This document shows positions 4,237-20,232 of a stretch of 64,000 nt of DNA, in pieces. The position numbers were made by a program, and so were the translations under genes. The notes under the pieces were generated by a model. The model ran no database searches, had not been told where the DNA came from, and saw only the letters and a program-made list of their open reading frames with translations. Position 1 is the first letter of the stretch. Each line of letters opens with the position of its first letter. Source of the stretch: a virus. The DNA is taken from positions 1 through 64,000 of the IMG/VR virus record IMGVR_UViG_3300045988_111115; one strand, given 5' to 3'.

Positions 4237-4662
4237 ATGAGTAAAGATGGAATTAAGCTAAGTAAAAAATACGGAGTAAACCCAACTATACCAATCTGTT
4301 TTTGGTGTGGTGAACACAAGAACGAAATAGCTTTATGCGGTCATATTGGTAACTACAGAAAAGGCGAAGACTTTGAAGCACCAAAGAACTGCATACTTGA
4401 CTATGAGCCTTGTGACAAGTGCAAAGAAACTTGGGATAAAGGCGTCGTATTGATAGAGGTAGACACCAAACCACAAGCGGAGGGTCAGCTCCCTATACAA
4501 GACCCTTACTATCCCACAGGCAGATACGTAGTAATGGAAAAGTCCTCTGCTGAAAAGACTTTTAAACCTGAAGTACTTGAAAAGGGACTACTACTTGTAC
4601 CTCAAGAGGTATTTGAACAGATAGTACCTCAAGAGGATAAAGACACCAAAGACAACGAATAG
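4237..4662 (+). CDS. Hypothetical Cys/His-rich (zinc-finger-like) early protein
   Basis: Leader motif 4215-4230; ATG 4237; CFWCGEHKNEIALCGH and CDKC clusters. Confidence 0.55.
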   Translation: MSKDGIKLSKKYGVNPTIPICFWCGEHKNEIALCGHIGNYRKGEDFEAPKNCILDYEPCDKCKETWDKGVVLIEVDTKPQAEGQLPIQDPYYPTGRYVVMEKSSAEKTFKPEVLEKGLLLVPQEVFEQIVPQEDKDTKDNE

Positions 4663-4857
4663 GTCGTATACTGTTAGAGTGTATTACTGAATAGGTAGTA
4701 CACTTTATAGAGTATAAGACTTTAGTAGTGGGTCTGTACTCAATCCGTTAAATATTTTGAGCAGGGTACTAACGACCTCACTCAGTTAGTACCTTGAACA
4801 AAGTACTTAACGGTACTTTGGAACTACTATACTTAAGAGTGAGAAAGGAGAAACACT

Positions 4858-5178: not shown

Positions 5179-5508
5179 TAAGGAATTTAATGAGTACCCT
5201 CTGACTGTAAAAGGTTGGAGGGTCTTATTTTTTTGTCCTGAGATACTATGGTATTTTAGGTCTACACACTGTACAGTAAGTAACTATGGTTGGTAATGAA
5301 TAGCTACAGTAGTGGTGAGAAGTACATAGGTTTTGGAGGCTTAACACTTGATATAATCAGTATCTTGGCATTATATATGATTTTCATAAAATTCTATAAA
5401 AACTATTGACAAGTAGTATCGTATGTGATACAGTCTATACAGTAAATGAGCGACAACACATTTACAGTCATAACACTACTAACTGAAAAATGAGAAAGTG
5501 AGAAACAA

Positions 5509-5655
5509 ATGAATATTGAAACATTAAACAAGTCCGCACAAGTGTTATGTGGGAACTGTAAGCAGTACCGCATATATGCAAAGTGCAATACAGTTTGCAT
5601 AGATTGCCCCTTACATAGAACGCTTGAAGTCTTGAAAGCCTTGAATAACAAGTAA
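5509..5655 (+). CDS. Small Cys-rich (CxxC...CxxC) zinc-ribbon-like protein, 48 aa
   Basis: Variant leader (gagaaagtgagaaacaa) then ATG 5509; followed by a hairpin terminator. Preferred over the antisense ORF 5403..5672. Confidence 0.45.
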   Translation: MNIETLNKSAQVLCGNCKQYRIYAKCNTVCIDCPLHRTLEVLKALNNK

Positions 5656-5664
5656 TTTAAAAAT

Positions 5665-5698
5665 AAATGCACTGTGAGTTGTCAACAGTGCATTTATA
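5665..5698 (+). terminator. Rho-independent terminator-like hairpin (aaatgcactg...cagtgcattt plus T-rich run)
   Basis: 9-bp perfect stem read directly. Confidence 0.5.
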
Positions 5699-7224
5699 TT
5701 ACTTATAAGTTGGATAGTGACTACTCAGTACATAGAGGTATTGAGGTGTTACTCAGATACTTCTCACTGAGGTTATACTGACTTGGGTAATGGTGGGTAG
5801 TACTTCTGCTCTCTGATATAGTGCTATGGTTTGGCTTTGACAAAAAAGGTTGGTCTTTCTGAAATAGACATAAGCAAGATACCTTAGGGAGGTACACTAC
5901 TGTATTAGTGGCACTATGTAGCTTTTGGTGAGAATAGCGACTAAAGGGAGGTCAAGGCTATTACTAAGGTACTATAGACCTATATAGCTACTGAGGTAAA
6001 GATGATTGGCTCTACCAAAGTTACTGCCCTATTCCGAAAGGTAGAGGTGATTTGATGGGCATTTCAACAAAAGTCCAAATAAACTAATATGCTAAAGACT
6101 TCACAGATTTTCAAGTGACTTTGCTAAAATGCAACTTTTGGGTTAAAATTCCCAAAAAGCCGAAAATTCACAATATTTTAGGTCACATTAGGTCACACAA
6201 TGCTCCTATTTGAGGTCTCAAAAAGTTATATAATCTTAGTATAAGCATTACTAATAGACATATATAGGTCTTTCATAATATAGGGCATTTTAAGTGTTTT
6301 CGCCTTACTAATTCGGAAAATTTTAAGCCTTTTTTCAAGTGTACTATTTTAAGCCCTTAAAAATCAAAATAAGCACTTTTGTTATTGCATTTGCTTTAAA
6401 TACTTCAACTACTTTAAACATCACATAATAAATGCAGTCAAGCATAAATAACAAATTATTCCTTGATTTGTGAATGAAATAACTTAAATATTGCATTGAT
6501 TTTCTTTCTTTTGTATTTGTTCTTTGTGTTCTTCGCTTTCATTCTTTAACTTCTTTCTTTCCTGCTTTTGTTCTTCAAACAAAACTTGAAACTTAAATTC
6601 AATTTTGAAATTTTTATAAACTAAAACTAAGATTTTCAGTGAGTAGTAAAACTACTTTATGTTTGTATACAATTCACATAACAATACTTGATGTTTGCCT
6701 TGCTTTGTACTTGTTCACAACAACTTCAAAATTAAAACTAAAATTTATTTTCTTTGTCGCACTTGCAAACTTCTTATTTTAGGTTATACAATGAATAACT
6801 TATGTAAAAAAATTGCATATAATCAAAACAGACCCCACCCTTAAACCGCCTTACTTTAGTCCGCCTGCTGAGCCACACACCATAATATTGGTGATAAAAT
6901 TGAGGGTAGGAGTGTACCATAAAATACAGTACTGTACAGAGGTTGCGTTGTGCAAAAGGCGAGTAAGCGTGGTGTAAAAATATTCTCGGTGTATAAAAAC
7001 AGAGGTGTAAGTGTACCATAATTAAAAAAGAGTGTATAAAGACCTAAGGAAAGTGCCCTGAGAAGAGCAGAAACAGTTCTAAAAGACGGAATAAGTAAGA
7101 AAAGCTAAATTTACACTACTAAGCACTATGGATAGCATAAAAGACCTGAAAAGACCTAAAGAGAATATACTAAAATGCTAAGAATTTAAGCAGAAAGTTT
7201 TAAGTGCAAGGGTGCTTGCACTAT

Positions 7225-7250
7225 GAGTATATACCTTTAGGTATATACGA
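7225..7250. promoter_or_regulatory. 21-bp perfect palindrome GTATATACC-TTT-GGTATATAC (operator-like), copy 1
   Basis: 26-mer identical to 48438-48463; followed by an AT-rich tract and TGtTATAAT at about 7352-7360. Confidence 0.6.
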
Positions 7251-7392
7251 ATATAATTATATATAATATATTATAATATAGTTAATATTACACATCTAAG
7301 TGAAAAATGGAGGCGGTGTCCAATTTGCAATAGTGCTTTGACAGTGTTATAATGTAGCTACACCAAATGAAGAGAAAGTGAGGTATATAAAA

Positions 7393-7818
7393 ATGAGGTT
7401 TGGAGTACAGTTAATGCAGTTGTTCAAACAAGCCCTTGAAATGAACAAACAGTGGGACGTAAATAAACACCCAATAATACTTATTAAGATAAGAGATACT
7501 ATATTGAGATATACAGGTTGTGAGATACGGTTCAAGTTTAACCCTGTAGACAATTTAGGAGTAGCAATAATGCTTGATGATATATTAGTAGAGGGTTGTA
7601 ATGAGACGTTTACAGAAGTGCTTGAGAGTGTACAAGGTAAGTACATAGGCGGACCACTTGACTTTAATATTACCTCTGCAATGGCAAATGATTTTAATGA
7701 AGCTATGTTGTTAAAGACAAGTGGTAGAGTAAATGCAAAACCTGTAATGACTATATGTTCAGATGAGGAGAAGCTAATAGTAGAAGATTTCATAGTGGAG
7801 GTAGAGTATGATGAATGA
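7393..7818 (+). CDS. Hypothetical protein
   Basis: ORF 7378..7818; ATG 7393 has GTGAGG RBS 9 nt upstream. Confidence 0.5.
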   Translation: MRFGVQLMQLFKQALEMNKQWDVNKHPIILIKIRDTILRYTGCEIRFKFNPVDNLGVAIMLDDILVEGCNETFTEVLESVQGKYIGGPLDFNITSAMANDFNEAMLLKTSGRVNAKPVMTICSDEEKLIVEDFIVEVEYDE

Positions 7819-8233
7819 AGAGTTTAAGAGTTGCTTTTACTGCAAGTACTATAAAGACGGTAAGTGCTTGAGACTGACCGAAGATATAGACTTTGACTAT
7901 GGTTTTGATGTACTGTTTGATAAGTATATCAGCGAAAGTGATATTGATATAAGTGCAGAGGAGCATTTAGTAAATGTACTGTCTATTGAAGAGGTGATAA
8001 AAGGTATTATGAATGTACTTGACCGTAACAGTGTAAGAGTAGGTATCAAGAAAAGAGTACAGATAAAAAAGGACCTTAGTGAGTTGTTGAATGGGTATTA
8101 TGAAAAGTATATACAGGGCAGTGCCGAGTTCGCAAGTGATACAGTACTGAATTTAAAGAATGAGAGAGGGTTAATAAACGAAGTAATGCAGTTAGAGGTC
8201 GAGCCGACTTTCTGCTGTAAATATTGGAGGTAG
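7808..8233 (+). CDS. Hypothetical protein (CxxC...C motif)
   Basis: 141-aa ORF with start/stop overlap to neighbours. Confidence 0.5.
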   Translation: MMNEEFKSCFYCKYYKDGKCLRLTEDIDFDYGFDVLFDKYISESDIDISAEEHLVNVLSIEEVIKGIMNVLDRNSVRVGIKKRVQIKKDLSELLNGYYEKYIQGSAEFASDTVLNLKNERGLINEVMQLEVEPTFCCKYWR

Positions 8234-8415
8234 TAGTAATTAACATAAAGTGTTATAAAGAATTGTGTATGTACTATGGAGTTGCAGAGTTTAAAAACTC
8301 TCTAAATGCTGTTATGGGTGATATTACATTCTATCAGTATATCAAGAGTACTTATACAGAAGAGGAAATAGAAAAGTGTAAAGTAGTTATAAGAAAGAGA
8401 GGTTACATAGTATGA
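8224..8415 (+). CDS. Hypothetical small protein
   Basis: 63-aa ORF, translationally coupled. Confidence 0.4.
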   Translation: MEVVVINIKCYKELCMYYGVAEFKNSLNAVMGDITFYQYIKSTYTEEEIEKCKVVIRKRGYIV

Positions 8416-8618
8416 AAGTTTGGGAGTTAATAGCAGAGTTAAGCAAGTACCCCGCAGGGTATGATATAGAGGTAGAAATGGTAGAGGAGGACTATACAGT
8501 AAACACTATTAAAGAGAAAGGCAGTCCCCAAATATCCGCAGTGAGTGCCGACTTAGAGAGTATAGAGAGTTATTCAGCAGGTGAGAAAATCACCCTTACA
8601 GGTAGTTTTCAGTATTAA
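8412..8618 (+). CDS. Hypothetical small protein
   Basis: 68-aa ORF with ATGA overlap. Confidence 0.4.
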   Translation: MKVWELIAELSKYPAGYDIEVEMVEEDYTVNTIKEKGSPQISAVSADLESIESYSAGEKITLTGSFQY

Positions 8619-8628
8619 GGAGAAATAA

Positions 8629-9063
8629 GTGATGAATAGAGCAGAACGACGTAAAATGAAAAAACAAGGGTATAATGAACAAGGTAAGAAAGTCTATAAA
8701 TTGACACAAGACCAATTAGATGATATAGTAGTAAAAGCAATAGAGTTAAAGCGTGCAGAATTGGTGGAACAAGTAACAAGTACTGTAACTAATACGTTTT
8801 TACTGTTTTGCTTAGACGTACTACACTGTAAGTTTAATTTCGGTAAGATGAGATTGAAAAGATTTAAGTACTTTATGGACGAGCTGAGCGAACTTATCAC
8901 TGATGAAGATTGCAAGACAGAGGAAGTCCGAGAAGCACTTGAAGAGAAAGTAGACTTGGAGTTTATGTACCGTTCAATTAAGCCAAATGAAATATATACT
9001 GAAAAACATTGGGGGGACTATGAGCAAGTTACACCTTACCCACAAGAGAACAAGGAGGAGTAG
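8629..9063 (+). CDS. Hypothetical protein
   Basis: 144-aa ORF; AAGGAG RBS at 8617-8622. Confidence 0.5.
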   Translation: MMNRAERRKMKKQGYNEQGKKVYKLTQDQLDDIVVKAIELKRAELVEQVTSTVTNTFLLFCLDVLHCKFNFGKMRLKRFKYFMDELSELITDEDCKTEEVREALEEKVDLEFMYRSIKPNEIYTEKHWGDYEQVTPYPQENKEE

Positions 9064-9065
9064 TA

Positions 9066-9233
9066 ATGAGTACTTATAAGCATAAGTTACCTAATGTGGA
9101 GATTAAAAGCAAAGACAATAATGTACTTGTAATTAAGGATAATCAGTTGCTGTTTAAGCAAGAGAAAACAAAGCAAACAGTGGCAATAGCAACTGCACTG
9201 TACTTTTATCATAAATACGGAGGATTGCTTTAA
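9066..9233 (+). CDS. Hypothetical small protein (55 aa)
   Basis: Below the ORF-track cutoff; ATG 3 nt after the upstream stop; read manually. Confidence 0.3.
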   Translation: MSTYKHKLPNVEIKSKDNNVLVIKDNQLLFKQEKTKQTVAIATALYFYHKYGGLL

Positions 9234-9244
9234 TAAGTACATTT

Positions 9245-9541
9245 ATGCACCGCAGAATAGGAGAATATGTGATGAATAACAAGAGAATAGCATTGAAAGG
9301 TAGACCTTTTAGCCGATTGACTGATGAAAAGTTAAAAGAGTATCAGGAGATGTTTCAAGATTTTATAGGGTGCTTCAAGTATGAAGATAAGGAAAAAGAG
9401 GAGTTAATGCAAGAAGTTTGGAAGCTACTTTCAGACGAAGAAGTTGACCGTTGGAGTACTCAAAAAGTGATAACAGAAGAGCCGAAAAAGCCTGAGGTAT
9501 TTCCTAAGTTAAAGATAAGACACTTAGTTAAACGTAGGTAG
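9245..9541 (+). CDS. Hypothetical protein
   Basis: 98-aa ORF. Confidence 0.45.
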   Translation: MHRRIGEYVMNNKRIALKGRPFSRLTDEKLKEYQEMFQDFIGCFKYEDKEKEELMQEVWKLLSDEEVDRWSTQKVITEEPKKPEVFPKLKIRHLVKRR

Positions 9542-9570
9542 TTGACAAAAATTCATAAATGTGTTATACT
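9542..9570 (+). promoter_or_regulatory. Sigma-A-like promoter TTGACA-17-TATACT with TGn extended -10
   Basis: gttgacaaaaattcataaatgtgttatact read directly. Confidence 0.6.
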
Positions 9571-9574
9571 TTTA

Positions 9575-9960
9575 ATGCTGATGAAGTGATTTCTACTATT
9601 GCTAATCGCACCATTCCGATTGGTCGGACTTAAAATAGCAAAGTCCGACCCACCTCAAAGCACAAGATACAGGAAAGTTAAGTGACGTGGTAAATATAAC
9701 ATTGAATGTATGTTTCCTTTATATTATTCAATTTCCCCCCCAAGTTTTAAACTGTAGGTTACTACTTTTGGTCTCCCCTATGGACCTACTTAACTTGACA
9801 TTTGACACTTTCTCGGTGTATGTGTTTTAAGTATCTCAAAATGTGTATCTTGTGTTTTGAGGTGGGTAATCCACCATTGGTGTTTTAGTTGTTTTGGTTA
9901 TAGTAGTCACTATCCAAGGGAATACCTCGTAGCTGAAAAGCTATGGGGTATTTTTATTTT
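9575..9960 (+). ncRNA. Candidate structured RNA of about 380 nt (ncRNA or attenuator/riboswitch-like leader) between promoter and intrinsic terminator
   Basis: No ORF. 9-bp hairpin at 9622-9650. 20-nt long-range complementarity 9651-9670 with 9845-9864 (one G.U). 13-bp stem plus U-run terminator at 9921-9960. Confidence 0.45.
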
Positions 9961-9979
9961 ACAATGAGGAGGAATTGAA

Positions 9980-10366
9980 GTGAGTAATGAAAAGTATGCC
10001 GTAGGGCAGAAGATGTACTCTATTGTCAGAAGTGATGAGATAGCAGAGTACCAAATAGTAAGAGTAGGTAGAAAGTACCTTACTGTAGCACAGGTAGATG
10101 AGAAAAGACAAGTAAGTTATGATGTAAGACAATTTTATGTGGAAGACCTTTATGAGAGAGCCGAAATGGGCACACCTCAAATACTGTTTGCAAGTCGTGA
10201 AGAAGCACAAGAGTATTTGGATAGAAAGCGTATAGCATTTAAGCTATTTCACCATTTTGGAGACTACTATGCAAGTCTCACAAGGTACTCTGCTGACGCA
10301 CTTAGAAAGATTGAAAAGATAGTAGATGAAGAAGAGGAGAGACTTGAAAATGCAGATAAGAGTTAA
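9980..10366 (+). CDS. Hypothetical protein
   Basis: GTG start after a GAGGAGG RBS; 128 aa. Confidence 0.5.
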   Translation: MSNEKYAVGQKMYSIVRSDEIAEYQIVRVGRKYLTVAQVDEKRQVSYDVRQFYVEDLYERAEMGTPQILFASREEAQEYLDRKRIAFKLFHHFGDYYASLTRYSADALRKIEKIVDEEEERLENADKS

Positions 10367-10907
10367 TGAGATATACCGTCATTGTTCAGGGTCTTTTTAT
10401 ACAGTACTTGCAGTATCAAGTTTGAGGGTAAGTAACACAGAGAGCAGAGATATAGTGGTACTAAAGAAGTTATCAGCTAAAGGCGAAGTAGTTACATATT
10501 ACATAGAGGACTTCTTAGCAGAGATAAGTGACACTTTAGCAGATATGTTGGGTCAGAAGTTTAAGTTTGTACAAGTAAAGGACGCTTGCTTTAGCCTTGC
10601 AGAGACTACCACAGAAGCACTTGTACAGGAGTTAAAGTCACGCACTGATAACCCTTATGCTAAAGAGGAAGACCCAAAAGTAATTGAAGTACGTTATGAG
10701 ATAGGAGTTTATCGTCCTTACCCTAAAAAACAGAAAGAGCGTAAAGGACAGTATTACTTTGATAGCTTCTTATCCTTTGACACTAAAGAGGAAGCTATTA
10801 CACATATCAAAAACTACTTTCATAATAATGGGCAGATAGTAATTGCAAGAGTAACAAGAGCAGAGGAGACATCTGTTAGGGAGTTAATTGACAGTACTCT
10901 AATGTAG
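10350..10907 (+). CDS. Hypothetical protein
   Basis: ORF 10326..10907. ATG 10350 preferred because of the GAGGAGAG RBS 8 nt upstream. Confidence 0.5.
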   Translation: MQIRVNEIYRHCSGSFYTVLAVSSLRVSNTESRDIVVLKKLSAKGEVVTYYIEDFLAEISDTLADMLGQKFKFVQVKDACFSLAETTTEALVQELKSRTDNPYAKEEDPKVIEVRYEIGVYRPYPKKQKERKGQYYFDSFLSFDTKEEAITHIKNYFHNNGQIVIARVTRAEETSVRELIDSTLM

Positions 10908-10972
10908 TGCTATAATGCAGACAACACATAATGCAATGTATAACTAAAGCGTATTAGAAAGGAGAATTTAAC

Positions 10973-12079
10973 GTGAGAAGAATTAATAGTGTAGGAGGTG
11001 CTGTTCCAAGAGTACCTGAGGGAACTTTAATAATGCCACATAACCCTCAGTGTTTAGACACTCTTTGGGGAGATGCACTTGATATTCAAATGAAGTGTAA
11101 AGATGTTATAATTGAAGACAGTGGCAATTCTAATCGCTTCTGTTTTTCGTGGTATGTAAATTCAAATGGAGACTTTGTAAAGAGTTTAGACTTTGTTCCT
11201 GATGATGTAATTACTTTAGGAACACCTGTAGATGATAATTATTGTGACGAAGTACACAGAGCATACCTAACTAAATGGTCTTTCGGACAGTTATGTAACA
11301 AAGCAGGAGTACCTACGAGATATATGGATAAGTGTATAAATTCAGGTCTACAACACCTTGTACCTGCTAATATCAATGACTTCTTGATATTTCAGAATAA
11401 AAAATTACTTATCCGTTTGTACAATGACGAAGTAAGAGGTATTCTCGGAAGTAAGTATGTAACTCTTGATACACCTGATATAATTCAGGTAGTTGCACAG
11501 TCACAGTTCCTAAGTGGAGCTAATATAAAAGGTTATGTACTTGACCCAACAAGATTGCACTTACGTTTAGTAATGAATGAGCCTTTAACAGTACAGGGAG
11601 AAGATTTATTCCCTGGTGTTGCTATTACAAGTTCAGATGTCGGTAAGAGTAGCTTAAGAGTACAATTTTTTGTGTATAAAGAAGTATGTACTAATGGACT
11701 TATGTTACCTATTTCGCAGTCTTTAGTCTTTGAGCAGAAGCACATAGGTATAGCTATTGATGAGTTTGCAAGGGACTTAAAAGATAATTTGAGCCAATGT
11801 TCTAAGTATGCCTCTAATGTAAGTGAGAGAATAGGTAAGTTAAAATTTGAGCAAGGACTTAGCCGTAAAGAGTTATCACACCTGTTAAAAATGGGTGCAG
11901 ATAAGACCTTGTTTTCTGAACAAGCTATTGAGGAAGTACTTGACTTGTCTTACTGCAACTACTCACCTACACAGTGGGGTCTGATAAATGCTATAACACA
12001 GTATGCTCAAAGGTTTACTATTGAAAGACGTGTACAGTTTGAAGAGTTTGCAGGTAATTTATTGTATCGAGATATTTGA
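10973..12079 (+). CDS. Hypothetical 368-aa protein, no recognisable motif
   Basis: GTG start after an AAAGGAG RBS. Confidence 0.5.
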   Translation: MRRINSVGGAVPRVPEGTLIMPHNPQCLDTLWGDALDIQMKCKDVIIEDSGNSNRFCFSWYVNSNGDFVKSLDFVPDDVITLGTPVDDNYCDEVHRAYLTKWSFGQLCNKAGVPTRYMDKCINSGLQHLVPANINDFLIFQNKKLLIRLYNDEVRGILGSKYVTLDTPDIIQVVAQSQFLSGANIKGYVLDPTRLHLRLVMNEPLTVQGEDLFPGVAITSSDVGKSSLRVQFFVYKEVCTNGLMLPISQSLVFEQKHIGIAIDEFARDLKDNLSQCSKYASNVSERIGKLKFEQGLSRKELSHLLKMGADKTLFSEQAIEEVLDLSYCNYSPTQWGLINAITQYAQRFTIERRVQFEEFAGNLLYRDI

Positions 12080-12136
12080 CGTTTGAGGTAGTCTGTTATA
12101 TAATTAGTACATAAAACGAGTAAAGGAGAAATGCTT

Positions 12137-12490
12137 ATGCAAGAACAACTATATAACAGACTTATTTCAGATTTAAAAAAGTTGGGTATTCCTTTGAACT
12201 TTGAATTAGAAGTAAAGCCATATAGTAAAAGTTACTATGGGAGATATAACCCTAACACAAATAAGATAACGGTTTATGCCTATGAGGACAAGAACTGTAC
12301 AAGAGTATATTCCTATGATAGTCTTTTGGATACAGTGATACACGAATTTACACATTATATACAGTACACTAACCCAAACTATAAGCGTGTTAAAGGCATA
12401 ATGCACGACAGTAACTTTTGGGTGCTGTGCAACTACTTTAAAGACAGAATAAAGAGTATTAAACTATGGGAGGAGTTGAAAGCAAGTTGA
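12137..12490 (+). CDS. Small putative zinc metallopeptidase-like protein (HEFTH = HExxH motif)
   Basis: VIHEFTHY motif. ATG 12137 has AAAGGAG 9 nt upstream; the ORF-track start is 12131. Confidence 0.45.
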   Translation: MQEQLYNRLISDLKKLGIPLNFELEVKPYSKSYYGRYNPNTNKITVYAYEDKNCTRVYSYDSLLDTVIHEFTHYIQYTNPNYKRVKGIMHDSNFWVLCNYFKDRIKSIKLWEELKAS

Positions 12491-12711
12491 GAAGAGAGTT
12501 TGTAGAGGTAAAAGAAAACCGCTTCTTTAAAGTACTAAACTATATACTTAGTATAGTAGTAGCTTTTATAGGGGTGTTCACTTGCATTACTACTTTCGGA
12601 GCAGTAATTTTAGTGCTTATATCACTATGTCAGCAAGATATGGTAGGTGCTTTGATGTATTCTTTAGTAAGTCTATCTGCAAGTATAATAAACAAATTCA
12701 TATATTCATAG
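12466..12711 (+). CDS. Small membrane protein (two hydrophobic segments)
   Basis: 81-aa ORF with hydrophobic stretches. Confidence 0.4.
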   Translation: MGGVESKLRREFVEVKENRFFKVLNYILSIVVAFIGVFTCITTFGAVILVLISLCQQDMVGALMYSLVSLSASIINKFIYS

Positions 12712-12722
12712 GAGGTAAATCA

Positions 12723-13019
12723 ATGAGTGAAAGTAAAAGTAATTTAGGTATCATAATAGATACCGACCTTGATACATTCAAGGAGGATATGATACAAAGA
12801 CCTATAGGACAGCTTATGTCTTTAAAGAACTTGCTAAGTTTAAAGTATAATCAGGTCAAGAGTGCTTCAACTGAATTGACTAACCAAGCTGTTAAGTTAG
12901 GCAAACAAAAAGACCCTGAGTATGTGCAAACACTACAGGGAATGAATATAGCTATGTTTAAGATAGAACAGAAAGTACTGTTTTTAAATGATAGGATAGA
13001 CGATTTAAGGGTAGATTGA
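12723..13019 (+). CDS. Hypothetical protein
   Basis: In-frame within ORF 12582..13019; ATG 12723 after GGAGGT. Confidence 0.45.
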   Translation: MSESKSNLGIIIDTDLDTFKEDMIQRPIGQLMSLKNLLSLKYNQVKSASTELTNQAVKLGKQKDPEYVQTLQGMNIAMFKIEQKVLFLNDRIDDLRVD

Positions 13020-15230: not shown

Positions 15231-15814
15231 AAGCTGAGATTAAGGTAAATGATAAAGTAATTGAAGTAGAACTAACTACAGAACAAATACAAGAGTTAGG
15301 ACTATTTGATGAGCCAAAGAAAAAGAAAACGGGTTTTGAGCCTACATCAATAGGCGGAGACTATTATATTATAACAACTCATAATGTTGAAAAGCATATT
15401 AATAGAGGGAATGGAAATGATATTCAGAATCGGGCTTCAGATAACTATTTCACAAGTTATGACCTTGCTTCTGATTTAAGAAGAGCCTTTCATCTTAATC
15501 TCCGAATGTTAAAGTGGCAAGCAGAAAATGATGAACCTGCATATGCTTATGACATAGAGGGCTTTGCTTTTGGCCGTTATATTATAACTTACTTCTATAA
15601 TGCTAATACCTATACAGGAGACTTGTGTCCTAAGTGTGTTAAGCCTGAATACAGTTCACCATTTATGGTGTACTTTAGTTCTGAAGAGAAAGCGTGGAAA
15701 GCTATAGAAGAGTTTAGAAGAGATTTAATATGGTATCACGAAGCATTTAAGTGTAGAAGAGATACTATAACCGAAAGTGATATAAGAGTGAAAAATGGAG
15801 GGCAATTATGTTGA
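15227..15814 (+). CDS. Hypothetical protein (CPKC motif)
   Basis: 195-aa ORF with ATGA overlap. Confidence 0.5.
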   Translation: MKAEIKVNDKVIEVELTTEQIQELGLFDEPKKKKTGFEPTSIGGDYYIITTHNVEKHINRGNGNDIQNRASDNYFTSYDLASDLRRAFHLNLRMLKWQAENDEPAYAYDIEGFAFGRYIITYFYNANTYTGDLCPKCVKPEYSSPFMVYFSSEEKAWKAIEEFRRDLIWYHEAFKCRRDTITESDIRVKNGGQLC

Positions 15815-16680
15815 GGAAGATTATACCCTTAGTCAATAACCTAAGTAAGCTTTATATCCTTAATGAAGAGGGTGTACCTTGTTTTGTACACTCTAAGGAA
15901 TACCCTAATGTTGCAACACAACCAATAGTGCCACGCTTCAATGGTTATACCTGTGTTGAAGACTATATGAAAGATGATATAAAATACATAGTACCTATGA
16001 CCGCAAAAGAGATTGAAAGCAAGGAAGAGCAGTTAGAAAAGTTGCAGAGTAAAGACTTCTATGTTGAAGAAAAGTTTGACGGTACAAGAGGTATAATGCA
16101 CTTTTATACTTGTGACCCAAAAACACTTAGAGAAAAGTACTACCCGAACTATAAGGAAGATGAAAAGCAGTATCTAAGTGTATGCCTGTTACAAGGAAGC
16201 TCGATTGTAGACGGTAAACGCAGAATTTATGACTACTTTCTGACACACTCTAAGTCTAAGGATAGAGTAGACTTTTTAAAGCAAGAGTATGGTATAGGAG
16301 GGTATACAGGTTATCCCATATCTTGTAGCTTTAACAGTAAAGGTTTTACTATAGATATGCCAAGTGACAAAGAGATAAATGGACGTTATAGTAAAAGCAT
16401 AACTTACACGTGGAAAACTATTGCCGAAGAGATACAACACCTGATAGATATAAAGCACTACTATGCACAAAAGGGTTATACAAGAGTGTTCAGTAGACGT
16501 GAAAGCAAAAAGACAGGTTGGCTCACTGAGAATACAGATAGTGTACCACAGCTAAGAGATTTAAACCGACCTGAACTTGCAGGTACTATAATTGATGGTG
16601 AGATGTTTATACCTAATCAACCTTTTAAAGCTGTAGCAAGTACCCTAAACTGTAAGTGGGTAACTAAACTGTTACAATAA
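15808..16680 (+). CDS. ATP-dependent DNA ligase, 5' exon or N-terminal fragment (motif I KFDGTRG, motif IV IIDGEM). The frame stops at the insertion boundary
   Basis: EEKFDGTRG is the KxDGxR adenylation motif and DGEMF is motif IV. Motifs V and VI are absent here and found in ORF 19216..20232. Confidence 0.8.
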   Translation: MLRKIIPLVNNLSKLYILNEEGVPCFVHSKEYPNVATQPIVPRFNGYTCVEDYMKDDIKYIVPMTAKEIESKEEQLEKLQSKDFYVEEKFDGTRGIMHFYTCDPKTLREKYYPNYKEDEKQYLSVCLLQGSSIVDGKRRIYDYFLTHSKSKDRVDFLKQEYGIGGYTGYPISCSFNSKGFTIDMPSDKEINGRYSKSITYTWKTIAEEIQHLIDIKHYYAQKGYTRVFSRRESKKTGWLTENTDSVPQLRDLNRPELAGTIIDGEMFIPNQPFKAVASTLNCKWVTKLLQ

Positions 16681-17200
16681 ATATAAACAAATCTGCACAA
16701 ATTTGTGCAGTGGTATAGATTTTATTAAGCAGAAAGCCCTTTGTATCGAGAAATCGGTGCAAACTCAGTGTTAATTGCTTTTAATCCCTAAAGCCTTACA
16801 CCTAAACAGTAATCCGAAAGGATAAACTGAACGGTACGAAAGTAGAAAAAACGTAAGGATGGCATATGGTGAAATAAAAGTACCTCAGTGTTAATGATAG
16901 GACAGATAATTTCTGACGTGACACATTAAAAACGGGTATCCTAAGTGCTTAAGCAATGGGTGTTTAGCAGCGAAAGCCCTAAGTCTTTTTATAAGATATG
17001 GGACACGTTCAACGACTATCTCCTTGAGGGAGAGTAAAACCACAAGCTAATGGTGGAAGAAAAATACTGCCCCACACTACTATGTGGGTGAAGATATAGT
17101 CTACGCTTATGTGAAAGCATAAGAGGTCTGTCGGTAACGATAAGACTGCTATAAGGTTGCGACTTATAGTGAATGAGATAAATATATACATATTTAATTT
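16681..17200 (+). ncRNA. Group I intron catalytic core (P4: aattgctttt 16773-84 with aagcaat 16951-57; R gttcaacgactat 17007-19; P8 hairpin 17071-88; S aagatatagtct 17091-102)
   Basis: Matches R consensus GUUCA.GACUA and S consensus AAGAUAUAGUCY; P7 gacta:tagtc; 18-nt perfect palindrome 16693-16710. Confidence 0.65.
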
Positions 17201-17261
17201 ATTTATATAAATCTATTGACAACAATATAAAATTATGATACCATAGATATATAAAAATAAT

Positions 17262-17897
17262 ATGGTGGTGAATTTTATGGAATTGTTAAGCATAGGTAAA
17301 TTTGCTAAAACTGTAGGAGTAACTACGACAACATTAAGAAGAATGCATCAAAGTGGCGAGTTAATTCCTGCACATATTTCAAATGGTGGAACAAGGTATT
17401 ATTCTACGGAACAATTAAAATTATTCCAATCAAGTAATAATGAAAGAATAGTTATTGGTTATTGTAGAGTAAGTACTCCATCACAAAAAGACGATTTAGA
17501 AACACAAGTACAAAATGTTAAATCATATATGTATGCTAAGGGATATAAATTTGACATTATAAAAGACATTGGTTCGGGTATAAATTATAAAAAGAAAGGT
17601 TTAAAAGAACTCATTAATAGGATAGAAAATAATGAAGTTTCTAAAGTTGTAATTTTATATAAAGATAGGTTGATTCGATTTGGATTTGAATTAATTGAAT
17701 ATTTGTGTGAAATTAATAACGTAGAAATAGAAGTTATAGACAATTCGGAATGTAGTAAAGAGAAAGAATTAACAGATGATTTAATTCAAATTATTACAGT
17801 TTTTGCGAATAGATTGTATGGACAACGTTCAAAGAAAACAAAACGACTTATTAATGAGGTGAGAAACAATGCTGATAACAAAGAAAATCAGACTTAA
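17262..17897 (+). CDS. tnpA: IS607-family TnpA: serine recombinase with an N-terminal MerR-like HTH
   Basis: LSIGKFAKTVGVTTTTLRR HTH; IGYCRVSTPSQKDD catalytic Ser motif; alternative start 17277; upstream TTGACA at 17215. Confidence 0.8.
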   Translation: MVVNFMELLSIGKFAKTVGVTTTTLRRMHQSGELIPAHISNGGTRYYSTEQLKLFQSSNNERIVIGYCRVSTPSQKDDLETQVQNVKSYMYAKGYKFDIIKDIGSGINYKKKGLKELINRIENNEVSKVVILYKDRLIRFGFELIEYLCEINNVEIEVIDNSECSKEKELTDDLIQIITVFANRLYGQRSKKTKRLINEVRNNADNKENQT

Positions 17898-19047
17898 ACC
17901 GACAACTGAACAAGAAATATTATTTCGTAAAAGTGCTGGTGTATCGAGATGGGCATATAATTTCTTTTTAGGTGAGAATGAACGAATATACAGAGAGTAT
18001 ATTGACAATGGAAAAGTTGGTAAGAAAAGCATTAGCGAAGGTGATGTTAGGAAATACATAAATAATATATTAAAACCAACTACTCATTCTTGGCTCAAAG
18101 AAGTTGGAAGTAATGTAATGAAACAAGGTGTTAAAGATGCCAGTCTTGCATTGCAAAGATATTTTAAAGGCTTGTCTGGAAAGCCCAAATTTAAGTCCAA
18201 ACATAAAGACAGACCGAGTTTTTATGTCAATTATGAAAGTCTTTCAAGAAAACAAGGTGGTTTTCAAGGAGAAAAAATAGGCTTTGTAAAAACATCGGAG
18301 GCACTTCCTAAACTAAATAAAAATGAAAAATATTCAAATCCAAGAATAACGTTTGACGGAAAATATTGGTATCTATCTGTTGGCTATGAAGTGCAAGAAA
18401 GCACAGTGGAATTAACAGACGAAAGTTTAGGAATAGATTTAGGAGTTAAAGATTTAGCAATTTGTTCAAACGGAAAGGTTTATAAAAATATAAACAAAAC
18501 TCAAAGAGTTAAAAAGTTAGAGAAGAAACTAAAACGTGAACAGCGAAAATTATCAAGGAAGATTGAAAATAATATTCAATCATATAAATCAAATAGAAAC
18601 CCTATATACAAAAGACCTTTGAAAGAATGTCAAAACATTCAAAAACAAAATCGTCTAATACGAAATATACATAGAAAACTTGCAAATATTCGTCAAAACC
18701 ATTTACATCAAACAACGACAGAGATAGTGAAAACCAAACCATCTCGAATAGTTATGGAAAGTTTAAATGTAAGTGGAATGATGAAAAATAAACATTTATC
18801 AAAAGCAATACAACAACAAAAATTTTATGAATTCAAAAGACAAATTGAATATAAGTCAAAACTAAATGGGATTGAATTCATTCAAGTTGATAAGTTTTAT
18901 CCAAGTAGTAAAACTTGTAGTTGTTGTGGAAATATCAAGAAAGATTTAAAACTTTCGGACAGAATGTATAAATGTGATGTTTGTGGTCTGGTTATTGACC
19001 GAGATTACAATGCAAGTATAAATTTAGCAAATTATGAAGTTATATAA
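17869..19047 (+). CDS. tnpB: TnpB (OrfB) RNA-guided nuclease; RuvC-I/II/III acidic residues and C-terminal zinc finger present
   Basis: GIDLGVKD (D), VMESLN (E), CSCCG...CDVCGLVIDRDYNASINLA (D plus Zn finger); 29-nt overlap with tnpA. Confidence 0.85.
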   Translation: MLITKKIRLKPTTEQEILFRKSAGVSRWAYNFFLGENERIYREYIDNGKVGKKSISEGDVRKYINNILKPTTHSWLKEVGSNVMKQGVKDASLALQRYFKGLSGKPKFKSKHKDRPSFYVNYESLSRKQGGFQGEKIGFVKTSEALPKLNKNEKYSNPRITFDGKYWYLSVGYEVQESTVELTDESLGIDLGVKDLAICSNGKVYKNINKTQRVKKLEKKLKREQRKLSRKIENNIQSYKSNRNPIYKRPLKECQNIQKQNRLIRNIHRKLANIRQNHLHQTTTEIVKTKPSRIVMESLNVSGMMKNKHLSKAIQQQKFYEFKRQIEYKSKLNGIEFIQVDKFYPSSKTCSCCGNIKKDLKLSDRMYKCDVCGLVIDRDYNASINLANYEVI

Positions 19048-19234
19048 ATTCACTTAAAAGAATTATATAACTATGTACCTATCGCTATTAGGGAATTTAC
19101 GTCTATGGAGTGTCATAACAAATGAAAGTAGCTACGGCAAAATCAGACACGTTGAAGTAGAAAGTCTTAATCGTGAGATAAGGCACAGTATAGATTTATA
19201 TAAATTAGTTGTAATTTGTATATGTTTATCATAG
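19048..19234 (+). ncRNA. IStron 3' segment: candidate omega-RNA scaffold and intron 3' end / 3' splice site
   Basis: Non-coding 187 nt after the tnpB stop; stem-loop-prone sequence (cacgttgaag...cttaatcgtg); abuts the ligase exon 2. Confidence 0.4.
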
Positions 19235-20232
19235 CGGATAAAGCTATAACAAGACAGCTTGAATTAGGTGGTGTAGTATTCCACGCTTTTGATATACTTT
19301 TCTTTAAAGGTATTGACTTACGTAAAATGCCTTTGGAAAGACGTAAAGTGTATCTGCATATAGTATGTGATACTTTAAATTCACCTTTTGTGAAAGAGGT
19401 AAAGTACTATGATGAAGACGGAATAGTAGTACCCCTTTTAAGTATGTCTGATAGGGATAGAATATTGAATAACCCTGAACTATATCCGAATTTAGCTGAG
19501 GATATAAAGCACTATATGTCAAATGCACTGTATTATGAGGAAGATGAGAGTAATGACGGTGAGCCTTTACCTTTTAGAATTTCCAAAGCTTCTTACTATG
19601 AGTATATAGTCTTTACAGGAGGAGAGGGAGTAGTAGTAAAGCCTAAGACAGGTAAGTACTATCACAAAAGAGGTAGAGAGTATGAGAAGATAAAGAAGTT
19701 CCTAACAAGAGAATGTATTATCTGTGGTTTTACCCCACCTACACAAGCGTATAAGGGTAAGTTCCCTGATGATAGTTGGTCCTATTGGATAGACAATGAG
19801 ACAGGAGAAAAGCAAGACCCTGAAGAGTGTGCTAATATGTCAGCTAAGAAGTTACAAAAGACTTGCACACCTGTTACAAAGTACTACTTTGAAAATTGGG
19901 TAGGTAATGTAGAGTATGGAGTGCTAATCTCCGAAGATGAGATTAAGAAGTTACCTAAGAACAAAAATCACGATATTAGGACAGTCGAAGTATTGACAGA
20001 CTATAATGACAGAAAGTATCTAAAAGTACTTGTTGTAGGTGAATGTAGTGGTTTTGATGATGATGAGAGAGCGTGGTTTACTGAACATAAAGATGAAGTA
20101 ATCGGTCAAGTAATCGAAGTCAAAGCTAATGAGATATTCAGAGATACAGGTAAACTTAGACACCCTCGCTATTTGAGACTAAGACCTGATAAGTCGGCTG
20201 AACAGTGTACCTTTAAAGAGCATATACTTTAA
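19235..20232 (+). CDS. ATP-dependent DNA ligase, 3' exon or C-terminal fragment (AFDIL...PLERR, motif V EGVVVK, OB-fold region); exact exon start uncertain
   Basis: HAFDILFFKGIDLRKMPLERRKVYL and GGEGVVVKPKTGKYY; the open frame begins after the stop at 19201; the track ORF starts at TTG 19216. Confidence 0.7.

Follow-up and report, generated by a model that had tools for sequence, protein, structure and literature searches.

We identified a previously undescribed, highly structured noncoding RNA (ncRNA) of ∼384 nt, which represents a new family, in an uncultured tailed phage (IMG/VR record IMGVR_UViG_3300045988_111115); the stretch analysed here, positions 1 to 64,000 of that record, is referred to as the window. 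The predicted RNA lies at 9577-9960 on the + strand, the orientation of all genes in the window, and runs from a near-consensus promoter to a strong intrinsic terminator. The same promoter, fold and terminator were found in five lineages of one phage clade, with compensatory changes in the helices and G.U wobble pairs on the + strand, and we consider it highly probable that the region is a real RNA gene selected on this strand. An independent structured ncRNA, one of several readings listed in a first-pass annotation of the sequence, is thereby supported. The explanation that we favour, with moderate confidence, is a phage ncRNA transcribed early and on its own, with a terminator that in addition throttles two promoter-less genes downstream.

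Promoter, transcript limits and coding content

The element occupies a gap of 438 nt (9542-9979) between a gene for a 98-aa protein (9245-9541) and one for a 128-aa protein (9980-10366). One base past the stop codon of the upstream gene begins a sigma-70/sigma-A type promoter with an extended -10 element (9542-9570, + strand; TTGACA, N14, TG, N, TATACT), in which TTGACA (9542-9547) and TATACT (9565-9570) are separated by a 17-nt spacer that carries TG at 9562-9563. It matches 11 of the 12 consensus positions, in agreement with the first-pass annotation. The pattern TTGACA-N14-TGNTATAMT is retained in 16 of 17 member loci compared, the exception being L009, whose spacer is 1 nt longer, and the hexamers and the TG are constant across lineages although the spacer sequences vary. 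The 5' end of the RNA was placed 7 nt past the -10 element and its 3' end in the U tract of the terminator; the RNA itself is predicted from its fold energy, its homologues and the lack of a conserved open reading frame (ORF).

The absence of coding content, also claimed before, was confirmed. The longest + strand ORF in 9542-9979 has 47 aa, starts with GTG and spans a C tract of variable length, and no peptide similarity across lineages could be observed among 40 ORFs of at least 15 aa on both strands of the five RNAs (best E = 0.13). Thus, a conserved protein encoded by the homologues, which would have spoken against an RNA gene, was not found, and a small protein or type I toxin was rejected because no peptide is conserved and the one ORF of greater length runs over the C tract, which varies in length. 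This tract (9735-9741) is C7 in the window, as noted before, and in L013, C6 in L002, L006, L007, L009 and L010, C5 in L001, L003, L004, L005, L008 and L074, and an interrupted CCTC in L012; such differences between near-identical genomes may be either true homopolymer length variation or assembly errors. No tRNA or tmRNA was found in the window.

Distribution of the RNA

Exact-protein look-ups revealed the same locus at 96-100% identity in at least 14 independent assemblies, and four more lineages were reached via homologues of a DUF932 protein (45-51% aa identity). Together they form five lineages of one phage clade, all with the element at the same genomic position: the window clade (L001-L013 and L074, the latter recovered by a pattern scan of metagenomes), L113, L014/L015/L116, L016 and L017. 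The first-pass annotation had proposed to compare related genomes for presence or absence of the segment 9651-9864; no such polymorphism appeared, as all five lineages carry it. The flanking genes share 60-70% DNA identity between lineages and the RNA region about the same, which makes the lineages divergent enough for informative covariation.

Beyond this clade the RNA was not detected. DNA similarity searches with the RNA region and with 7000-13000 against 50,697 phage records gave no match, nor did protein-anchored scans of IMG/VR with two flanking small proteins. In 34 IMG/VR loci whose DUF932 homologues are more distant (30-43% aa identity), the RNA was absent by nhmmer, by a long-stem scan and by covariance model R1, a model that recovers solely members with short apical domains. 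Scans for the two arms of helix P2 (see below) gave chance matches only, and among 52 stretches that matched a promoter-plus-5'-arm pattern in JGI metagenomes, GTDB genomes and IMG/VR, L074 alone was genuine. No cultured phage was found to carry the RNA, and nothing relevant was found in the literature. The RNA family is therefore real but narrow.

The large terminase of the phage, which has a GC content of ∼36%, is of Terminase_6 type and 49% identical to its counterpart in Bacillus phage BCD7 (L118, NC_019515), and no nearer cultured relative was found in INPHARED. In BCD7, a 475-nt gap upstream of the DUF932 gene (4349-4823) contains three tandem units, in each of which a terminator-like hairpin is preceded by a small one of the GGGTGG-CGAAAG-CCATACTAAAA type (fold z of the gap = -5.0); this gap could not be aligned with the RNA at 9577-9960.

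Fold and parts of the RNA

The minimum free energy (MFE) of 9577-9962 is -128.1 kcal/mol (z = -7.4 compared with dinucleotide shuffles), and that of the reverse complement -104.8 kcal/mol (z = -5.7). The homologous RNAs of the four other lineages had z scores within -6.6 to -8.3, and the + strand was more stable than the - strand in all five. RNA size varies from ∼255 to 440 nt among the relatives, and the parts occur in the same order in every lineage: promoter, leader/P1, hairpin H1, helix P2, apical domain, hairpin H3, linker and terminator.

The whole molecule is closed by a helix that the first-pass annotation had overlooked, P0/P1, in which 9585-9613 pairs with the G/U-rich strand 9878-9915 in four blocks, including G.U pairs; it is present in both the MFE and the centroid structures. 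Its 5' strand is invariant in the window clade, where P1 extends to ∼23 bp, and by inspection the equivalent helix of the other lineages occupies the same position and is 5-9 bp long (GGTGG/CCACC, TATAGTGGG/CCCACTATA and GAGGT/ACCTC). It is followed by H1 (9622-9650), previously described as a 9-bp hairpin; the hairpin is there, with a stem of 10 bp (9622-9631 with 9641-9650) and a 9-nt loop. H1 abuts P2 without a spacer, and its final 2 bp can swap with the base of P2. All five lineages have such a hairpin of 7-10 bp, unrelated in sequence and ending at most 1 nt from P2, and since this arrangement occurred in only 0-6% of shuffles per lineage, the joint probability of abutment by chance is negligible.

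P2 is the dominant feature, and its arms (9649-9671 and 9844-9866) were located by inverted-repeat search and pair counting. The long-range complementarity with a single G.U, which was reported as 20 nt, is in fact a 24-nt inverted repeat (9648-9671 with 9844-9867), 96% complementary and with 172 nt between the arms; the lone non-Watson-Crick pair, G9660.U9855, is a wobble on the + strand only. In all lineages P2 has 21-25 bp and no bulge, and in its upper half the sequence is conserved as well (AAAG-Y-A-Y-A-N-GAUA, read as GATA in the DNA of the 5' arm, plus the complement). P2 encloses a variable apical domain (9672-9843), which in the window contains the C7 tract and a CCCC-loop hairpin (9770-9786). 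With 4 extra nt trimmed on each side, this domain is 168 nt long in the window and 62-141 nt in the other lineages, between which it could not be aligned. Most substitutions and indels within the window clade also fall here and ignore the local pairs predicted for it.

The 3' part of the RNA is the best conserved, both within the clade and between lineages. It begins with H3 (9861-9875; GGTGG GTAAT CCACC), which a scan flagged as terminator-like and which re-uses the end of the 3' arm of P2 and competes with the basal 5 bp of that helix; equivalents were seen by inspection in L014 (TAGTGGG TTAT CCCACTA), L113 and L017. A linker rich in G and U leads from H3 to the intrinsic terminator (9918-9960), which was missed by a simple terminator scan and recovered by folding. 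As stated before, the terminator is strong and has a U-run; its stem is longer than the 13 bp then given, with a core of 14 bp (9921-9934 with 9939-9952) that extends to 17 pairs from 9918, a GAAA loop and then TTTTTATTTT up to 9960.

Covariation and the strand under selection

A covariation analysis in homologous phages, proposed by the first-pass annotation, strongly supported P2 and the terminator. In alignment A2, which contains eight distinct sequences with the apical domain excised, 97.8% of the cells of the 23 P2 pairs were paired and 13 of the 23 pairs had changed on both sides. None of 500 shuffles reached any of these measures, and sliding one strand by 1-3 columns reduced pairing to 33-53%. 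The wobble cells of P2 comprised 12 G.U or U.G on the + strand and no A.C; as an A.C would be a G.U of the opposite strand, it is the + strand RNA that is under selection. RNAalifold recovered both P2 and the terminator unaided from a longer alignment (A3), with double changes in 22 of 39 pairs; the terminator, present in all lineages, covaries in its stem.

Recent changes point in the same direction. Within the window clade, all five substitutions in H1 (L011, L012), P2 (L074) and the terminator (L011, L012) keep pairing, and all are transitions that create or resolve a G.U: those in H1 yield G.U pairs, and those in the terminator, as also in L116, turn G.U into A-U. Of four L116 changes in P2 and the terminator within the L014 lineage, three likewise keep or improve pairing; the remaining one opens the pair that closes the terminator loop.

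These results bear on the possibility that the repeat is an element of the DNA, namely paired binding sites for a protein, a cruciform or origin, or the ends of a miniature inverted-repeat transposable element (MITE), the last having been suggested for the segment before. A repeat of 23-24 bp does flank a length-variable segment here, as the terminal inverted repeats of a MITE would (24-nt arms, 96% complementary), the motif AAAGYAYANGATA is conserved in both arms, and the locus lies among early and replication-type genes. However, the symmetry of a DNA element does not lead one to expect that 12 of 12 non-Watson-Crick cells are G.U on the + strand, nor that the + strand fold is always the more stable one. 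The repeat exists in one copy in the window, scans of INPHARED phages, IMG/VR, JGI metagenomes and GTDB genomes turned up no further copies, no lineage has an empty site or a flanking target duplication, and the promoter and terminator around the repeat are conserved as well. Because selection acts on the + strand RNA, we regard a DNA-level element of any of these kinds as very improbable. The MITE in particular was rejected: it would be a single copy without presence/absence polymorphism, its arms diverge in step with the flanking genes and they keep RNA-type pairing.

Terminator, downstream genes and a possible leader function

Behind the terminator stand a ribosome-binding site (RBS; GAGGAGG, 9966-9972) and the 128-aa gene (9980-10366, + strand, GTG start), whose product matches the Pfam family Phage_ProQ_C_like (PF24203, E = 3e-12). 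The distance from the U tract to the next RBS is 3-20 nt in all five lineages and 6 nt in the window. Between the terminator and the next consensus promoter (10888-10916) there are two genes (9980-10907), one for the ProQ_C-like protein and one for a 193-aa protein, which could be transcribed only by read-through since no promoter precedes them until 10888-10916.

This arrangement raises the possibility that the RNA is the 5' untranslated region of the gene pair, a cis-acting leader or attenuator in which a phage or host protein, or processive antitermination at a promoter-proximal RNA, governs passage of the terminator, and the short RNA is a by-product. Processive antitermination is familiar from lambda Q and HK022 put, and the lambda PR'-tR' '6S' transcript is an example of such a by-product. 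A riboswitch or attenuator leader controlling 9980-10366 had also been offered in the first-pass annotation; the promoter-less gene pair and the closeness of terminator and RBS fit it, tests for an antiterminator pairing lent it no clear support, and a ligand pocket was not found. In none of the five lineages do the 3-20 nt between terminator and RBS leave room for a promoter, and the next consensus promoter follows ∼900 nt on. Moreover, the start of the terminator 5' strand repeats the basal part of the P2 5' arm (CACCTC/TACCTC in the window, CACTCT/CACTCT in L016 and TACCCTA/CACCCTA in L017), so that the P2 3' arm could pair with the terminator instead, and H3 and P1 provide further alternative pairings for the base of P2.

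Several results speak against this reading. The alternative pairing of the P2 3' arm with the terminator 5' strand is possible in three to four lineages and missing in L014, and its energy within lineages (-12.3 kcal/mol) was slightly more favourable than that across lineages (-10.3 kcal/mol), a difference equalled in 11 of 120 permutations. A perfect P2 of 21-25 bp would be far too stable to be displaced by a competitor of 6-10 nt. Invariant columns occur inside helix P2, with no invariant unpaired nucleotides and no sign of a ligand pocket. The downstream gene also varies by lineage: L016 has kept the RNA and lacks the ProQ_C-like gene, and its terminator is directly followed by a homologue of the 193-aa protein. 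Finally, complementarity of the RNA to the downstream RBS was not specific to the lineage (106 of 120 permutations equalled it); pairing of the C tract with the next RBS as an anti-Shine-Dalgarno sequence, which involves 11 of 12 positions in the window, was rejected for this reason. Taken together, we consider a leader function possible but rather unlikely, and a stand-alone, trans-acting role of the RNA the moderately probable alternative.

Several observations concern this junction in individual genomes. Near the 3' end of the upstream gene, 9494-9505 can pair with 9917-9928 in the terminator 5' strand at 12 of 12 positions (one G.U), and 9480-9502 is a 74% copy of the terminator 3' half (9931-9953); in transcripts initiated upstream, such sequences could compete with the terminator, and they were not seen in other lineages. 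In L012, the ProQ_C-like gene (2484-2885) encodes a protein with 59% identity to that of the window in a genome that is otherwise ∼95% identical in DNA and next to an RNA that is 96% identical, and the L017 protein is 28% identical. The ProQ_C-like gene behind the terminator is fast-evolving or exchangeable. Its predicted structure has an SH3/Tudor-like barrel followed by helices (predicted local distance difference test, pLDDT, 74, moderate confidence), with weak matches to SH3/Tudor/PWWP-like folds only and no significant match to a solved structure; with these limits, and with the gene absent from L016, a role of the protein as a partner of the RNA is speculation.

Relation to the upstream operon and RNase III processing

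On the + strand, no terminator was detected from the promoter at 7324 up to 9918, so upstream transcripts would enter the element; the upstream operon (7378-9541), which itself lacks a terminator, should therefore end at that of the RNA. It is conceivable that the region mainly serves as a processing or insulating 3' end of this operon, with P2 as a target of RNase III and the 3' end shielded by the terminator hairpin, so that the stabilities of upstream and downstream messages are uncoupled, as in T7 or SP82 early mRNA sites. Perfect duplexes of at least 20 bp are established substrates of RNase III, and the bulge-free 21-25 bp of P2 in every lineage fit the length of such a substrate. On the other hand, a mere 3' end or processing site does not need its own conserved near-consensus promoter, and H1, P1 and the ∼100 nt of conserved 3' linker would be superfluous for a cleavage site. 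Processing as the main function thus appears unlikely.

Comparison with known RNAs

In the whole window, the only match to Rfam 15 at gathering thresholds was a RAGATH-18 RNA at 19102-19163. The Rfam scan suggested by the first-pass annotation returned no family for the RNA region or for the locus in the four other lineages; at E ≤ 10, only chance-level matches to the region were obtained, the best being trpB (23 bits compared with a threshold of 59), driven by the terminator. Two further identities were discarded. A retron msr/msd was rejected because no reverse transcriptase domain was found in the neighbouring genes, which have Pfam matches to ProQ_C_like, DUF932, SAP and ligase or no match. 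A resemblance of 9591-9603 (ATTTCTACTATTG) to the Cas12a repeat was dropped since the hairpin of that repeat does not form here and the other lineages have not kept the segment.

Among known systems, the RNA is best classed with orphan phage ncRNAs such as GOLLD and ROOL, and best described as a new structured family. Like GOLLD and ROOL, it is a phage-borne noncoding promoter-to-terminator unit of several hundred nt, with covariation and without a known function. However, it has no sequence or structure match to them, is smaller and simpler, is dominated by one perfect long helix and is limited to one narrow clade. The lambda PR'-tR' '6S RNA' shares with it the succession of a strong constitutive promoter, a short noncoding transcript, a strong terminator and promoter-less genes behind that need read-through. 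Differences are that two small early genes rather than a late operon follow here, that a new consensus promoter appears after ∼900 nt, and that the fold is under strong selection, which is not known of the PR'-tR' transcript; none of the neighbouring genes matched a Q- or N-like family.

RNase III stalks (rRNA precursor stems, T7 R1.1, SP82 sites and tracrRNA:crRNA) also consist of an uninterrupted duplex in which distant segments pair around another RNA domain, and the 21-25 bp of P2 resemble them. Here, the duplex belongs to a conserved scaffold that is larger and has a promoter of its own, its upper half is conserved in sequence, and its cleavage is hypothetical. Long-range closing helices, unpaired C-rich stretches (here C7 and the CCCC loop) that could pair with Shine-Dalgarno sequences, and a strong terminator are shared with the multi-hairpin regulatory RNAs of Firmicutes that have C-rich loops (RNAIII of Staphylococcus aureus and RsaE/RoxS), in contrast with which the C-rich motifs are absent in L017 and unenriched, no target and no specific match to the neighbouring RBS could be identified, and no homology was detected. 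The pRNA of phi29 is likewise an early phage ncRNA with a three-way junction and paired 5' and 3' ends; the RNA described here has no Rfam match, differs in size and helices, and belongs to a phage with Terminase_6-type packaging rather than a phi29-type motor.

Possible role of the RNA

On the basis of these results, we propose that host RNA polymerase would make the RNA early in infection, as a discrete, abundant and stable molecule that has an activity of its own and is not a sensor. P1, H1 and the upper half of P2, whose sequence is conserved, form a conserved scaffold that might serve as a platform for protein recognition or RNase III processing; a perfect duplex of 21-25 bp with a sequence-conserved upper half suggests a helix that is recognised by a protein or cleaved by RNase III, and not a ligand switch. 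The variable apical domain, in which runs of C3-C7 are predicted to be unpaired in four of the five lineages, could be the lineage-specific effector part. The terminator would hold transcription into the ProQ_C-like and 193-aa genes low, both of which would rely on read-through.

Searches within the phage genome revealed no target of such an RNA. The segment 9902-9917 is perfectly complementary over 16 nt to 5710-5725 (E of about 0.005-0.02), a site in an ORF-free region downstream of a promoter-like site at 5406 that has no equivalent in L014, L016 or L017; as the match was not reproduced in other lineages, it was rejected as evidence for a trans target. Energy scans for targets in the phage genome were noisy and uninformative.

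It should be noted that several points weigh against a stand-alone trans-acting RNA. No trans target was found, the 16-nt match being the only notable one in the phage and absent from other lineages, and the C-rich motifs are no commoner than composition predicts and are absent from L017. The arrangement expected of a regulated leader is precisely this one, a strong terminator directly ahead of genes that have no promoter. Only five lineages are available, with formal covariation for P2 and the terminator, and P1 and H3 judged by inspection, and the ends, abundance and stability of the RNA are deduced from its sequence.

A more specific and rather improbable version would be a 'scaffold plus cassette' effector of host takeover. 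In such a case, a phage or host protein, for which the adjacent ProQ_C-like protein is a possible candidate, would bind P1-H1-P2, RNase III would cut P2, and the apical domain would be released as a small RNA directed at lineage-specific host transcripts or serving as a decoy for a defence sensor. If true, this phage RNA would carry its own processing stalk together with an effector domain that can be exchanged.

To our knowledge, few structured phage ncRNAs of several hundred nt have been described, and even fewer with clear covariation support. The present RNA has a defined promoter and terminator and a simple, testable architecture, and is located in an apparent host-takeover region of an uncultured clade distant from BCD7. 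If trans-acting, it would be an additional RNA player in early phage-host conflict; if a leader, it would be a new type of long, rigid attenuator. Under either reading, it provides a new family for Rfam-style annotation and a promoter-less gene pair gated by an RNA, one gene of which is diversifying fast.

Genomic surroundings and other observations

The region around the RNA consists of small genes, mostly of unassigned function, in clusters that are each headed by a consensus promoter (426, 9542, 10888, 12076 and 13016). Neighbouring genes encode PC4-like, DUF932 and SAP-domain proteins and an ATP-dependent ligase, and others have no Pfam match. The gene for the 368-aa DUF932 protein (10973-12079) is represented by two overlapping ORFs (153 + 220 or 122 + 251 aa) in L001, L003, L007, L008 and L010, which in near-identical assemblies might be due to a recurrent frameshift or to a sequencing artefact.

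Upstream of the operon that precedes the RNA, an AT-rich stretch of 2 kb (5297-7377) contains no + strand ORF of 60 aa or more, and a gap of 1.3-1.7 kb is kept in L014, L016 and L017. Within it, a block of ∼100 nt (7182-7280) shows 86-89% identity to L014 and L017, compared with ∼65% for genes. It holds a perfect palindrome (AGTATATACC-TTTA-GGTATATAC) with (AT)n behind it, and the promoter at 7324 lies ∼100 nt further downstream; this could be a region of the operator, origin or injection-stop type. Near the start of the L017 locus, 248-318 matched the type II hammerhead ribozyme with a score below the gathering threshold (32.3 bits compared with 37, E = 0.008).

The ATP-dependent DNA ligase gene of the window appears to be split into an adenylation domain (15808-16680) and an OB/C-terminal part (19216-20232) by an insertion of 2.5 kb (∼16681-19215). 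This insertion contains genes for a serine recombinase with a MerR-type helix-turn-helix (17262-17897) and for TnpB/OrfB_IS605 (17869-19047) and has the appearance of an IS607-type element. A 581-nt ORF-free stretch at its 5' end gave no Rfam match and no group I intron, and the RAGATH-18 RNA (73.5 bits) lies just past tnpB. In L014, L016 and L017, the ligase is encoded by a single uninterrupted ORF of 591-596 aa.

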